Positions 42,001-51,000 of a DNA stretch of 64,000 bases are shown piece after piece (positions within the stretch are counted from its first letter, which is position 1; each line of letters starts with the position of its first letter). Position numbers: made by a program. This DNA is from Escherichia coli (GTDB lineage Bacteria; Pseudomonadota; Gammaproteobacteria; Enterobacterales; Enterobacteriaceae). The stretch lies in the NCBI RefSeq assembly GCF_041886205.1, contig NZ_CP169029.1. One strand, written 5' to 3'.

Positions 42001-45000
42001 GTCATGCTGGGAGCGGTGGAACGCCGCTTCGGCAACGAGCTTCCGGCGTCTCCAGTAGAGTGGCTGACGGATAATGGTTCATGCTACCGGGCTAATGAAA
42101 CACGGCAGTTTGCCCGGATGTTGGGGCTTGAACCGAAGAGCACGGCGGTGCGGAGTCCGGAGAGTAACGGCATAGCAGAGAGCTTCGTGAAAACGATAAA
42201 GCGTGACTACATCAGTGTCATGCCCAAACCAGACGGGTTAACGGCAGCAAAGAACCTTGCAGAGGCGTTCGAGCATTATAACGAATGGCATCCGCATAGT
42301 GCACTGGGTTATCGCTCGCCACGGGAATATCTACGGCAGCAAGCCAGTAATGGGTTAAGTGATAACAGGTGTCTGGAAATATAGGGGCAAATCCAGCTTT
42401 ATCGTCCGTGTGCTGGTGTTATATATGAGGGAAGCAGAGTTGTCGCCGGACCCAGTTCTGGTGTGCAGTGCTGCATTGTCGTAATGTCCGTGATTGATAA
42501 TCATGCTTCTTGTATAACGACAATGAGATGTCCGGGCTCAAATCATAATGTGGTCAGGGCGTCATCGCGAAAATTCGGTTATCATAAATACCTTTCGTTT
42601 TTTCCAGGGCTTTACAGGCAGACCAGTTGAAAAGCACCGTAATATCGAAAAGTAATAACTCTGGAGACATAAAAAAGCCGGCGAAAAACGCCGGCAATGA
42701 TCATAAACAAAAATAGGCTAATCCCTATGTGCCTTATCATTTTCCCACCATTTCATACAGAATTTCAAGCTGATATACAGAAAAAATAACATTGACTGGC
42801 GAAGCTGTGATAGAACTTAGAATGTATCAGAAAGAAATATTTTGTATGACAAAATGATGTGGCAGATATTAAGGTCGTACCAGCAGTAATTTCCTGTGCG
42901 GTCCGTACAGGAAGGAGTGTCATATATTCTTATTATGTGAATTAGCTCAATTATTAGAGAGATGTCTGTTATATATAATTTATCACAACACGGTGTATCC
43001 TGTATTGTATCAGGGCTAAGTGGCAGTTTGTACATAACCTGCAAAGGATTTGCTAAAGGCACCTCAAGGCGGACCATGGTTTGCCACACCAGTGGTCTAT
43101 CGGTAAAAATCCGACACCGTGTTGTTTTTTCTCTGTACTTTTATCTATAAATCACGAGTTGATGGTGTTTTTTTGCTTCATGAAGGAGGGCTGTGAGGTG
43201 TTTTAACTTTTCTTCGTGAAGTCAAATAGAGATATATAATTTATTCATGTGATAGAATTATGTTTACTGTTAACGGGTTATATTTTGATCCACTTGATCA
43301 AGAAAGGGTTATTGGATGGGGAGTGTATCGTAAATCCCCATGGGACCTTGTTGGTGTTTATCCGACAGAATATATAGCCAGGGAAAAAGCGGTATCATAT
43401 GGCTGCGATTATTTAGTATCACTGGGCCCTTATCGTATTGGCTCACATGATTTCAGACCATTCATGTCATATATATAAATCTGCGTCCTGATATTATCAA
43501 ATATTCCAAGTATAAATACACTCTGATTCAGTGATGACATTGTATATATTATGCATTGCCATGATATATGGATTACTCCTGACGGGTTATCTCCGGACAG
43601 CTGGTGTATCTGAATCTGGAGTGTAAAATACAGTAAATATGTGATTTAAACTCTGTAAAAAAATCCTGCCATACAGATGTATGGCAGGTAAGTGTCAGTT
43701 ACGCTGTAAATAAACATAATATCAGGTACAGCACACCTGATTTACGTCTGCGAAAAAAATTATGTATAGAAATGGAGGAATATAAAGGATTTGTTGTTGA
43801 TTTTATGTATTATGTCACAAAACTATGTATATTGTTGATAAATAATCAGGCTATGTTGAAGGTGCGTATTTTCATGAAAGGAGATCACTCAATACTCACC
43901 GATCTCCTTCACGGTAATACGCACTGACTCCGGTAATCCCCGTATTTCATCCTCGATGGCGTACTGTTCACTGATTCGCTTCAGGGCTTCTTCTGCCGTC
44001 TATACATCGTGGATTTTTCGCCGGGCATGGGCCCAGCACGCAACTTCTGTCAGTGCACCACCTTCACGTTCTGCACTGAACAACCTGTCGTAACCTGTGA
44101 ACGCATCCGCCTGCAGGATACCCCGGAAGGGGCGGAGGTGTTGCTCCGGGTATTTCCCCTGACGGTTCGGCGAGTACGCGAACCAGACCGCTGGAGGAGA
44201 TGACGAACCCACATTGCGATCATCCCGGACATACGTCCAGATACGCCCTGTTTTCGCCTTTTTCTGACCCGGTGCCAGTACCTTTACCGGTGTGTCATCA
44301 GTGTGAACCTTGCGGGTGTTCATTACATAACGGTACAGGGCATCATTCACCGGTGTCATTAACTGGCAGCACGCGTCAACCCAGTTGGAGAGTAAGGCCC
44401 GGCTCAGTTCGACACCCTGGCGGGCAAAGATTTCACTCTGACGATACAGTGGCAGATGTTCGCAGTATTTTCCCGTTAACACGCGGGCAAGTAATCCGGA
44501 GCCCGCGATACCACGCTCTATCGGGCGGGACGGCGCCGGTGCTTCAACAATACAGTCACATTTTGTACAGGCTTTTTTTACCCGTTCTGTGCGGATCACT
44601 TTCAGGGCACTGCTCACCAGTTCCAGCTGTTCAGCGCTGACTTCCCCCAGATAATCCAGCTCACCGCCACACTCCGGGCAACAGCTTTCTTCTGGCTCCA
44701 GGCGGTGTATTTCACGGGGAAGGTGTGCCGGTAACGGACGACGATGGCGCGACTGTCGCAACTGGCGGGGAACCTGAGGATCGTCTTCCCGCCCACTGTA
44801 ACGATCGCTGTCCTGTTCACGTTGTTTCAGCAGGGCCTCAGCCAGTTCAACTTCACGACGCAGTTTTTCAGAACGGGTACCGAACAGCATCCGGCGCAGT
44901 TTTTCTATCTGAGCCCGCAGATGTTCTATTTCCCGTTCATCTTCTTCGATCTTTTCTTCGGCACGTGTCAGTGCAGAGCGCAGGAAGGCTTCCGTCTCTT

Positions 45001-48000: not shown

Positions 48001-51000
48001 TCGGCTCTGACCATGGTGGTGAGCGGGGAGCGCTACTGTACAGCCTGATCGGGACGTGCAAACTGAATGACGTGGATCCAGAAAGCTACCTTCGCCATGT
48101 GCTTGGCGTCATAGCAGACTGGCCGGTCAACCGGGTCAGCGAACTGCTTCCGTGGCGCATAGCACTGCCAGCTGAATAACACATCCCCGTCAATACGGCC
48201 CTCGCTGTACGCTTACGAGTAAGATTTCTTAAAAAATATAACAATAACAAAAAATTGAAATATATCACAAAAAAATCAATATACCCCTTATAAGGCCTGG
48301 ATGACTGTACAGCATGTATATGCCAGAAAACCGGTTTATGTGAATCAGGGTTTACCCGTCACCAGTTGTGTCCTTAATACCATACTGTTTTAACCACTGA
48401 CAGGGAGTGACTGAGTAGTATTTTCTGAAACTTAAAATAAAATACGACAGACTGCTATATCCGCACTCTCTAGCGACAATAAAAATGTTAGCATTCCCGC
48501 ACTTCATCAGAGTTATTGCCTTTTTCATACGTACTTCTGTGATTATCCGGCTGAATCCTGCGCCTTCACTGTGCAGTTTTCTTTTAAGCTGACTGGCACT
48601 TATACATAACGCTGATGCAACATCTGACAGATACCATTTCTTTGCCGGCTCTGCGGCAACAATAGCTTCAACACGTAACGAGTAGTTATTCAGCCCACCG
48701 GACAATACAGGCAGCAACTGGTTTTTATCATTAAGATAATCCAGCAGCACAAATAATACTGACTCATAAAGGTTAGTATTTTTCTGTTGTTCCACAAGTG
48801 ACATCAGCGAGTTCAGAAAGGTACCATACGCTTTCTTTCTGAAAAAAGAATTTTTCCTGTCAGTGATGCATAACGCATCGGCATCCCTCAGTCTGATATA
48901 CAGATAGTCGCTGATGATATGACAGGGTATATCAATAAACCTCACACATCCTTCACAGGCATCCGTAATATACTGAATGTCATTTCTTTTAAGAAAGAGA
49001 ATTTCATTCCGGGCAAAATCAAGCTCTTCATTGTAAAATGAAGCACAGAATGGCCTCACTATAATGGCAAAACAATACGGAAACATACAGTACAGGTGTT
49101 ATTTAGAAATATCCGGTATTTTTCTTATTATAGCTGACAGACTTACTTCCTGACATTATATTAAGAAGTTCGATTTTATTATTAAAGTAACCGGACAAAA
49201 TACAGTCCGGTCACCGTGGTTATACGCGCATATAAATGTTATCAGTCACCTTCATTCAGGCTGACAGTATCCGTAATCACACCATCTTCTGCACCTTTCA
49301 GTGCAAGATTGGCTTCGTAGTATTTCCCTTCGCTCATTAATTTTTGCGCACTGTTAACCTTTTTCTGCGTCTGTTTTAATGGCATCAGCCACTGCGTTTC
49401 TGAAATATCAATTCCGGCGAGATGCAGTACGTCAATTGCTCCTTTTTTGTCACCTTTATCCAGTTTTTTATTGGCCTCATCAATAGCTTTCTGTTTTTCC
49501 GGGGTGACAGTAAAGTCTTCAGACAACATTAAGCTGCTGTTAATAATAATGTAGACATCGCCTTCCTGTGGTGTTTTTTTATCCTTGCGGACAACTGTTT
49601 CCCATGTTTTATCATCAGATTTAAGCAAATCTTCAGCCCGGTTTATCAGCTTATCTGCTGCTCCTGTGTCACCACTGAATAAGGCAAGACGTGCATACTG
49701 CATGTCATCCATAATTTCCATACCACGCTGTTCTGCCTTCAGACTCCTTTCTGATAAAACTGTCTGAGCCTCATTTTTTGTGGATGAAGTGTTTTCTGAA
49801 GTTGCTGAGGCCATTGCGACAGCAGAGGTCAGGGACAGAGCGATTGCTACAGCATTAAAGATATGTTTCATATTTTTTACTCCGACATCAGGCAGAAAGA
49901 ATCATACCTGATAATAAACATAATATGATTTTCCCCCTGACGATTAGTCATATACTCAGGAAGCCGGACAAGGATGTCCCCCTCCCGGACATTTATATTC
50001 CCCTATCCGGCATGCATATTTTATGTTCTGCAACTGATATAAGAAATCTGACCACTTACCCCCACACAAAAAATAAATACCGAACCGGTAATATCACAAT
50101 ACATCATTATAAAATTATATTTATGTTACCAGTAATTTTTATGCCATCACAAGCCCAAAAAATCATTAATAACCCACCCCGCTCCATGCAAATAAAAGAA
50201 AATACATTTCACATGAAATACCATGATATATATATTGCCCGGAGTGATGGTGTTTTTATGAAGCAATTTAAATAATACAGATAACTGTAATTTATCATTC
50301 AGACGAAGAGATTTGATTTACACGGTAAGAGCATATGGCACATTACAACAGGGGTCTCTGTGAATATATACAGAAAACATATCTCATAAAACCCGGGAAA
50401 TGCCCCATGAATACAGGACAGTGAAAACAGGCATGATAATCAGGAAAGCCATGCCTGATACAGAAAAAGTTACCTGCGGGGATAATGCATGCGTATTTTC
50501 ATGGAAGGAGATCACTCAATAACTTCCATCGAGAGCGGGTAATAACTCACCGATCTCCTTCACGGTAATAAGCAATGCACAACCAGGCACTTACTGGCCG
50601 GTTATCCATGTCTATATTATATTTACATCACGTCAGTTTTCATAAAGGCTGTGAACAGCCAGTAAATCAGGCCACTGAATACCAGCCACAGCACAACTAG
50701 GGCTGCAACCCTCACAGGGATATCACACTCTTCCGGCACTTTTTCCACAGCCATACTGCACAGATGGACTGTCATAACAGAAATCATCACAACAGCAAGG
50801 ATATGAATGAAAAGAAAAACGACTTTCATTTTCCGGAAATGCATATACAAACCCTGACTCAGCCTGTCCTGTCTTTCCTGATCCTCTGTAATCTTAACTT
50901 ATCCATGCGCTGACGAAGTCTGCCCGGAACACGCCCGCTCTTTCTTGAAATATGAGCACAGATAAAATCTTCAAGCAGAAAATGCATGTCCTGCATTACC

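Follow-up and report, generated by a model that had tools for sequence, protein, structure and literature searches.

Organisation of the locus

The DNA analysed here, referred to as the window, is a stretch of 64,000 nucleotides from the Escherichia coli contig NZ_CP169029.1. It contains two short hairpin-forming repeats, copy A at 43863–43923 (61 bp, plus strand) and copy B at 50490–50574 (85 bp, plus strand), which lie in one orientation and are thus direct repeats. Both had been reported in a preliminary description of this DNA, and the sequence patterns of their left and right halves did not appear in any of 100 shuffled versions of the window with dinucleotide composition preserved. The loci given there hold; the limits have been refined to the coordinates above by a BLAST search of the window with full-length ISEc12, which sets them at the TG...CA ends of the parent insertion sequence (IS).

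The segment between the copies holds the features previously listed for it, namely two IS66-family copies, an AraC-type regulator (48352–49086, minus strand) and YfdX (49242–49871, minus strand). Directly adjoining the right end of copy A, as had also been noticed, is a truncated ISEc23-like (IS66-family) tnpC gene (43924–45100, minus strand; Pfam DDE_Tnp_IS66; a pseudogene in RefSeq), from which the last 449 bp of the IS are missing. From exactly 43924 on, the sequence is 95% identical to the interior of ISEc23 as found in locus L003. The window also holds a third, diverged member of the family, copy C (32962–33029, minus strand; 68 bp), overlooked in the preliminary description. It belongs to a CP4-like island, where it lies upstream of the gene for a YeeP/YfjP-like GTPase.

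The copies of 61–85 bp are non-coding, with no conserved open reading frame. A short peptide or type I toxin-like reading frame was considered and rejected, as the ATG-initiated frames differ and end at different stops in copies A, B and C. The right arm as a coding duplicate of IS66 tnpC was likewise discarded, as this arm is absent from intact ISEc23 and the tnpC homology begins only at 43924. In the RefSeq annotation, ISEc12 end pairs of 61–85 bp carry no feature (feature column "none").

The repeats consist of ISEc12 ends

ISEc12 is an element of the IS21 family with the genes istA (transposase) and istB (helper ATPase), and is 2,581 bp in full length at locus L009; full elements with both genes are present at L009–L011. 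On the right, the L009 element ends with ...CTCACCGATCTCCTTCACGGTAATACGCA, the sequence of the repeat's right arm. The left arm together with the "loop" of copy B gives matches of 95–96.5% in 1,523 genomes, at a median of 3 places per genome and on both chromosomes and plasmids, and every match inspected proved to be the left end of a gene-splitting ISEc12 with annotated istA and istB. Three independent insertions of full ISEc12 are flanked by 5-bp duplications (ACTGC, ACAAT and TCGCT), the first of which is the one described for an ISEc12 insertion in tssM (PMC10711316). Each end of ISEc12 has repeats centred on GAGATC, those of the left end at positions 19 and 42 and those of the right end at 18 and 41. 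Their spacing of 23 bp is that of the L1/L2 and R1/R2 repeats in the end organisation described for IS21 (PMC10122671).

Copy A is made up of ISEc12 positions 1–32, with repeat L1, joined to the last 29 bp of the element, with repeat R1, and is identical to ISEc12 in both arms (32/32 and 29/29). In copy B, positions 1–57, with L1 and L2, are joined to the last 29 bp, with R1 (55/57 and 28/29 identical). Copy C is more diverged, matching ISEc12 at 30/34 positions of the left arm and 22/26 of the right. Copies A and B do differ in length, as originally described, although by 24 nt and not 23, and the difference is better read as a loss than as an insertion into the loop: L2 has been kept in copy B, and copy A is without those 24 nt. 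The repeat is therefore part of a known IS terminus, a possibility that the preliminary description had itself named as fatal to its reading. Its suggestion that the repeats are the ends of an uncharacterised small mobile element holds in so far as they are mobile-element ends, with both ends present in each copy; the element, ISEc12, is a characterised one. Resemblances to group II intron ends, attC sites, REP and ERIC sequences were abandoned once the ISEc12 ends had been matched.

The TG...CA termini of these mini-elements are identical to those of ISEc12, as are L1, R1 and, in copy B, L2 to 96–100%, and copy B shares with ISEc12 a 5-bp target duplication. Unlike the 2,581-bp parent, they measure 61–85 bp and lack istA and istB; R2 is gone from both copies A and B, and L2 from copy A. 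The same BLAST search with full ISEc12 found no ISEc12 coding sequence within the window. Copies A and B thus have neither the coding capacity for IstA and IstB nor the two or more direct repeats at each end that characterise autonomous IS21-family elements. They are non-autonomous and probably poor transposition substrates, since at least one end keeps only a single repeat.

We therefore consider it very likely that the repeats are what internal deletion has left of ISEc12, non-autonomous remnants with only the outermost IstA-binding repeats. The removal of some 2.5 kb, istA and istB with it, would have brought the terminal inverted repeats together, leaving L1 and R1 in what would become copy A, and L1, L2 and R1 in copy B. 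The deletions may have occurred between short AC or AATAAC repeats, probably with help from the inverted arms.

The hairpin as a by-product of apposed ends

The 9-bp stem originally described is real and forms the inner stem (AAGGAGATC/GATCTCCTT), continued outwards by GCGTATT/AATACGC as an outer stem. An RNA structure check, as proposed earlier, gave a predicted folding energy of −28.2 kcal/mol for copy A (z = −8.1), and both strands form very stable folds, with z between −5 and −8. Such stability, together with the conserved position of copy C, which some 1,900 genomes of E. coli have upstream of the GTPase gene, would fit a selected RNA or DNA structure, for instance one that acts as a regulatory RNA, that stabilises or terminates transcripts, or that serves as an attC- or REP-like recombination site. 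We nevertheless regard a selected hairpin as extremely improbable. Across 12 family members, compensatory changes were found at none of the 20 stem pairs, variation being one-sided or disruptive, and in the copy at L004 the stem is broken, its inner part having been lost. Rfam gave no match at the copies at either gathering or permissive thresholds, there is no U-tract, and the ISEc12 ends account fully for both arms. The hairpin is a by-product of setting the left and right inverted ends side by side, and not a selected structure.

Independence of the A and B loci

Copy B is flanked by ATGCA on its left (50485–50489, plus strand) and again on its right (50575–50579, plus strand), the 5-bp target duplication typical of ISEc12. 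In strain CFS3292, a diverged homologue of the locus runs unbroken across this site with a single ATGCA, and thus represents the empty site. Copy B marks a simple ISEc12-type insertion into the intergenic region between yfdX and the F17 operon. The flanks of copy A (GAAGG and CTGAC) form no target duplication. For copy C, a target duplication is not clear.

The two copies had also been proposed to be recombination sites, or the ends of one 6.6-kb unit. As direct repeats, with the left end of A and the right end of B correctly oriented for outer ends, they could in principle delimit a 6.7-kb composite transposon, or act as a pair through which the IS66–AraC–YfdX block is inserted or deleted. 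Several observations leave this idea with hardly any probability. Each copy is a complete left-plus-right remnant, the outer flanks are unlike (GAAGG versus ATGCA), and copy B has a duplication and an empty site of its own; in CFS3292, no mini-element interrupts the contiguous stretch from yfdX to the F17-side genes. Other genomes have only one of the two loci, or have both at a distance of about 1.5 Mb (e.g. 33F4, strain 11 and CE0026f), and a recombinant with the left side of A and the right side of B was found in 0 of 5,426 complete E. coli genomes. Strain JML285 retains copy A and has lost the sequence corresponding to window positions 46517–57270 by recombination between IS66 copies and not via the mini-elements. 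The block between A and B thus shows neither a common outer duplication nor occurrence as a unit elsewhere, as a composite transposon would. The two loci are independent, and their 6.6-kb spacing in this strain lineage is an accident of island mosaicism that defines no unit.

Decay in place and recurrent deletion junctions

Formation of a mini-element at its own site can be followed at another locus, upstream of an Alw26I-family methyltransferase gene. Here, one site with one duplication (CCAGG) is occupied either by a 62-bp mini-element, as in Nissle 1917 and EC5931, or by a longer ISEc12, as in 39 genomes; in the O177:H21 genome the longer form is a 1,876-bp ISEc12 derivative with istB deleted. 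The occurrence of either form at the same site and with the same duplication establishes decay in place at this locus.

For copy A, decay in place is not demonstrated, because no longer ISEc12 was found at either of its junctions in complete genomes, nor was a longer ISEc12 right end found at the same position of ISEc23. Had the element inserted into ISEc23, its original left junction should join the 3′ part of tnpC to CTGAC and the left end; no contiguous piece of this kind was found in any genome. The right flank of the type seen at L002 (CTAATCATCAG...) is absent from the rest of the window. A metagenome contig, L042, shares with copy A the right junction to ISEc23 and has another left flank, which runs exactly up to the IS terminus. 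On the preferred reading, a later IS-associated rearrangement removed or replaced both original flanks of copy A, leaving it next to the ISEc23 interior. At the locus of copy B, the mini-element is present in 22 of 22 genomes and a full-length element in none, so that copy B could have arrived already small.

Six deletion junctions have been recorded: the 61/62-bp form, the 66-bp form of L005, copy C, the 85-bp form of copy B, the 80-bp form of L023 and the 55-bp type of L021. Five of them break within a few base pairs of a boundary between IstA-binding repeat units, and the sixth, the L021 type, breaks about 4 bp further in. Left breaks follow AATAAC, at position 34 or 57, and right breaks fall at the R2/R1 boundary.

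The 61/62-bp junction, CAATA(A)CTCACC, recurs in at least five flanking contexts (the methyltransferase locus, the window, L042, L025 and L036/37) and on a Yokenella plasmid, and this form shows exact IS-end junctions to several different flanks without a longer precursor. A target duplication accompanies it only at the methyltransferase locus, which has the precursor in place; the remaining contexts are IS-rich mosaics without duplications. One of these is the L025 copy from a metagenome, whose flanks, pieced together from IS110 and IS21-like fragments, were uninformative. A single junction in so many contexts is ill explained by independent deletions, and gives a hint that the mini-element, once formed, has moved or exchanged flanks.

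Relationship to MITEs and to IS21 junctions

MITEs and other internally deleted IS derivatives include the IS630-derived RUP, the Correia elements and the MITE entries in ISfinder. The mini-elements resemble them in being small and non-coding, with the inverted ends of a parent IS and a hairpin, and in being scattered in intergenic DNA and genomic islands. They differ in their low copy number, in the lack of demonstrated amplification, in that most copies have no target duplication, and in that one of them demonstrably arose where it now lies, by deletion. A MITE derived from ISEc12 was not found described in the literature.

It is conceivable, though in our judgement unlikely, that the 61/62-bp form and perhaps others constitute a true MITE, which arose by a single deletion and later moved with IstA and IstB supplied in trans by resident ISEc12, copy A having arrived as a mini-element. 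The identical junction in several unrelated flanks and in another genus would fit this, as would the copy A junctions, never seen with a longer ISEc12, and the L042 contig with its alternative left flank. Plasmid variants with 5-bp duplications of their own, TAAAG (L023) and ACGTT (L022), point the same way. Against it, the sole duplication for this junction type lies where the precursor exists, the other contexts being mosaics without one; near-full matches occur at only about two places per genome; and the B-type junction is confined to one locus. Furthermore, IS5376 IstA requires two complete repeats at each end for integration in vitro (PMC10122671), and copy A has one per end. When a single genome of each species was scanned for the mini-element pattern, only two MAG contigs were returned; they are identical to E. 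coli island sequence and are probably binning contaminants.

Rather than random debris, the L1–R1 pair of solo ends might be a recurrent, specific product, although we find this quite doubtful. In its favour are the breaks close to repeat-unit boundaries and the exact IS-end junctions of the 61/62-bp form. Transposase-guided internal deletion would fit such a reading, as would mobilisation in trans or end-mediated rearrangement of elements with one repeat per end. If it were true, the mini-elements would offer a natural means of testing the number of end repeats that IstA requires in vivo. Mobilisation of one-repeat-per-end elements would contradict the two-repeat requirement seen in vitro.

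On the preferred reading as deleted ISEc12 remnants, a candidate "new repeat element" is removed and explained by a known insertion sequence, with little import for wider biology. The mini-elements do show where ISEc12 was once active in the genomic islands of E. coli, in this case an F17-fimbriae/CP4-like island, and may mislead scans for repeats and structures because of their strong folding.

The same two terminal sequences are also adjacent in the (IS21)2 tandem junction, the reactive joint between the right and left ends of IS21 dimers, and strain 4/1-1 carries a naturally occurring ISEc12 dimer in which the spacer is the 2-bp AC. In such a junction the ends meet tip to tip, right end followed by left end, whereas in the mini-elements the left end precedes the right, both facing inward with their tips outside.

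Derivation of the hairpin repeats from ISEc12

The pattern TGCGTATTTTCATG[A/G]AAGGAGATCACTCAATA ... CTCACCGATCTCCTTCACGGTAATA is present in one orientation at 43.86 kb and 50.49 kb of the window, as copy A (43863-43923, 61 bp) and copy B (50490-50574, 85 bp). Neither half of it recurs in 100 shuffles of the window, which bears out the two same-orientation hairpin repeats of the preliminary description. Folding of either strand gives a strong hairpin for both copies (copy A, -28.2 kcal/mol, z = -8.1); the 9-bp stem is present in them, but the full stem is longer than had been noted, with an additional outer stem, GCGTATT/AATACGC. 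A third, diverged family member, copy C, lies on the minus strand at 32962-33029. It is located upstream of a YeeP/YfjP-like GTPase gene, the IS102/IsrC RNA (31629-31865, minus strand; Rfam, above the gathering score) and an Ag43 gene, and occurs in that context in about 1,900 E. coli genomes, at 1-6 places per genome.

When copy B plus its flanks was used to search 5,426 complete E. coli genomes, the left arm together with the supposed loop insertion (50490-50546) had 95-96.5% matches in 1,523 of them, with a median of 3 sites in each genome; the sites are chromosomal as well as plasmid-borne and often fall within disrupted genes. All inspected matches were the left end of annotated IS21-like ISEc12 elements, comprising the transposase gene istA and the helper ATPase gene istB, and the genes split by these elements include a tssM/ImcF gene, trbG of an F plasmid and a recombinase gene. 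The ISEc12 of one compared locus (L009) is 2,581 bp long, starting TGCGTATTTTCATGAAAGGAGATCACTCAATAACTTCC... and ending ...GTTACTCACCGATCTCCTTCACGGTAATACGCA. Three independent insertions are flanked by 5-bp duplications (ACTGC, ACAAT and TCGCT); the identical insertion in ST131 tssM, with duplication ACTGC, has already been published (PMC10711316). Copy A consists of ISEc12 positions 1-32 (32/32 identical) and the last 29 bp (29/29), copy B of positions 1-57 (55/57) and the last 29 bp (28/29), and no further ISEc12 sequence is present within the window beyond the repeats. Judged by these sequence identities, the repeats are ISEc12 elements without their interior (here termed minis), and the hairpin is the terminal inverted repeats of ISEc12 set side by side. 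They are ordinary debris of a known insertion sequence, of a class that is not annotated; no papers on ISEc12-derived minis were found in the literature.

The hairpin itself is a by-product. Selection for its structure was considered and rejected: across 12 family members 93% of cells pair, yet none of the 20 pairs has changed on both sides in a compensatory manner, variation in the stem is one-sided or disruptive, the copy at locus L004 has lost the inner stem, and the repeats have no match in Rfam.

Anatomy of the ends

ISEc12 carries GAGATC-centred repeats at left positions 19, 42 and 88 (L1-L3) and, read inward, at right positions 18 and 41 (R1, R2). The 23-bp spacing corresponds to the L1/L2 and R1/R2 layout of IstA-binding repeats at IS21-family ends described in PMC10122671, a study that also reports 5-bp duplications, a terminal CA and the finding that integration by IstA in vitro depends on each end having two complete repeats. 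Copy A retains L1 and R1 only, whereas copy B retains L1, L2 and R1; the extra 24 nt of copy B are therefore L2, and not the 23-nt loop insertion for which they had been taken. A B-type sequence could be converted into an A-type sequence by deletion between two AATAAC motifs. Every IstA-binding repeat of ISEc12 (L1, L2, L3, R1 and R2; L009 4004-4140 and 6445-6584) contains a GATC Dam site. Such sites lie at 43884-43887, 43903-43906, 50511-50514 and 50554-50557 in the window, and the GATC of L2 in copy B is mutated to GAGC.

Origin of the minis

E. coli islands and plasmids contain minis of 55-85 bp with varied deletion junctions, as does a Yokenella plasmid. Clean 5-bp duplications flank some of them (CCAGG at a methyltransferase locus, TAAAG in an IncK plasmid and ACGTT in IncI1 plasmids), whereas others have none. 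The methyltransferase locus is the decisive case. A 62-bp mini with the CCAGG duplication is present in Nissle 1917 and many others, a longer ISEc12 occupies the identical site with the same duplication in 39 genomes, and strain O177:H21 has a 1,876-bp, istB-deleted form in which positions 1-1777 are joined to 2477-2581 (L044 4611-6486). One site and one duplication with these different forms shows stepwise decay in place. In the mini alignment, five of the six recorded junction types have their breakpoints at most a few bp from a boundary between binding-repeat units, on the left after AATAAC at position 34 or 57 and on the right at the R2/R1 boundary; in the 55-bp type of locus L021 the breakpoint lies about 4 bp further inward.

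The 61/62-bp junction is found again in several flank contexts, which counts against a purely in-place origin, and trans-mobilisation of minis or exchange of flanks mediated by their ends therefore stays under consideration as an unlikely alternative to decay in place. Strain 4/1-1 contains two full ISEc12 elements in tandem, with right and left ends 2 bp (AC) apart (L016, about 3020-3045), the arrangement of the reactive junction known from IS21 dimers.

Separate histories of copies A and B

Copy B has ATGCA on each side, and its locus has a diverged (85%) homologue in CFS3292 that is uninterrupted at the site, with a single ATGCA. The yfdX side and the side of the small ORFs and F17 fimbrial genes were therefore once contiguous, before an ISEc12-type insertion, and copy B is not a segment boundary. 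The mini is carried in 22/22 complete genomes holding the locus. Directly to its right lies an F17 fimbrial operon (51163 to about 56000, minus strand) encoding the F17G adhesin with its lectin domain, an usher, a chaperone and F17A; this operon is typical of bovine-associated E. coli.

Copy A lacks a duplication (flanks GAAGG versus CTGAC). Its left flank runs on in CFS3292 into unrelated DNA, with the break exactly at the IS tip, and on its right lies interior sequence of an ISEc23-like IS66 element, 449 bp short of that element's end. The A/ISEc23 junction is identical in a metagenome contig (L042), where the left flank is different again. A longer ISEc12 at either junction is absent from complete genomes; the junction expected from an original insertion into ISEc23 was also searched for and not found. 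Copy A has therefore undergone IS-end-associated rearrangements. In strain MIN12 (L003 4003-4136) an ISEc23 (IS66 family) interrupts the ISEc12 left end, its insertion point following position 135, and such nesting seems to be recurrent in several genomes.

The two copies are not a pair. JML285 retains copy A, but an IS66-IS66 recombination has removed window 46517-57270 from it; copy B occurs in many genomes that do not have A; and in strains 33F4, 11 and CE0026f a distance of over 1 Mb separates the loci. The 6.6-kb spacing is restricted to a ZYB39-like lineage, and an A-left/B-right recombinant was found in no genome searched. This independence argues against the proposal that the copies serve as recombination sites or paired ends. 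ZYB39 itself (L012 15631-17580) is collinear with the window except for an extra IS100 (IS21 family) at window position ~42647-42656.

Other features of the window

The intact IS66-family tnpC (46608-48179) contains a perfect 33-nt tandem duplication, or 11 codons, at 47380-47445, and its DDE domain is split into two stretches by Pfam. Rfam matches above the gathering score also include C0719 RNA (9525-9746, minus strand) and STnc490 within an IS200 remnant (40159-40282, plus strand).
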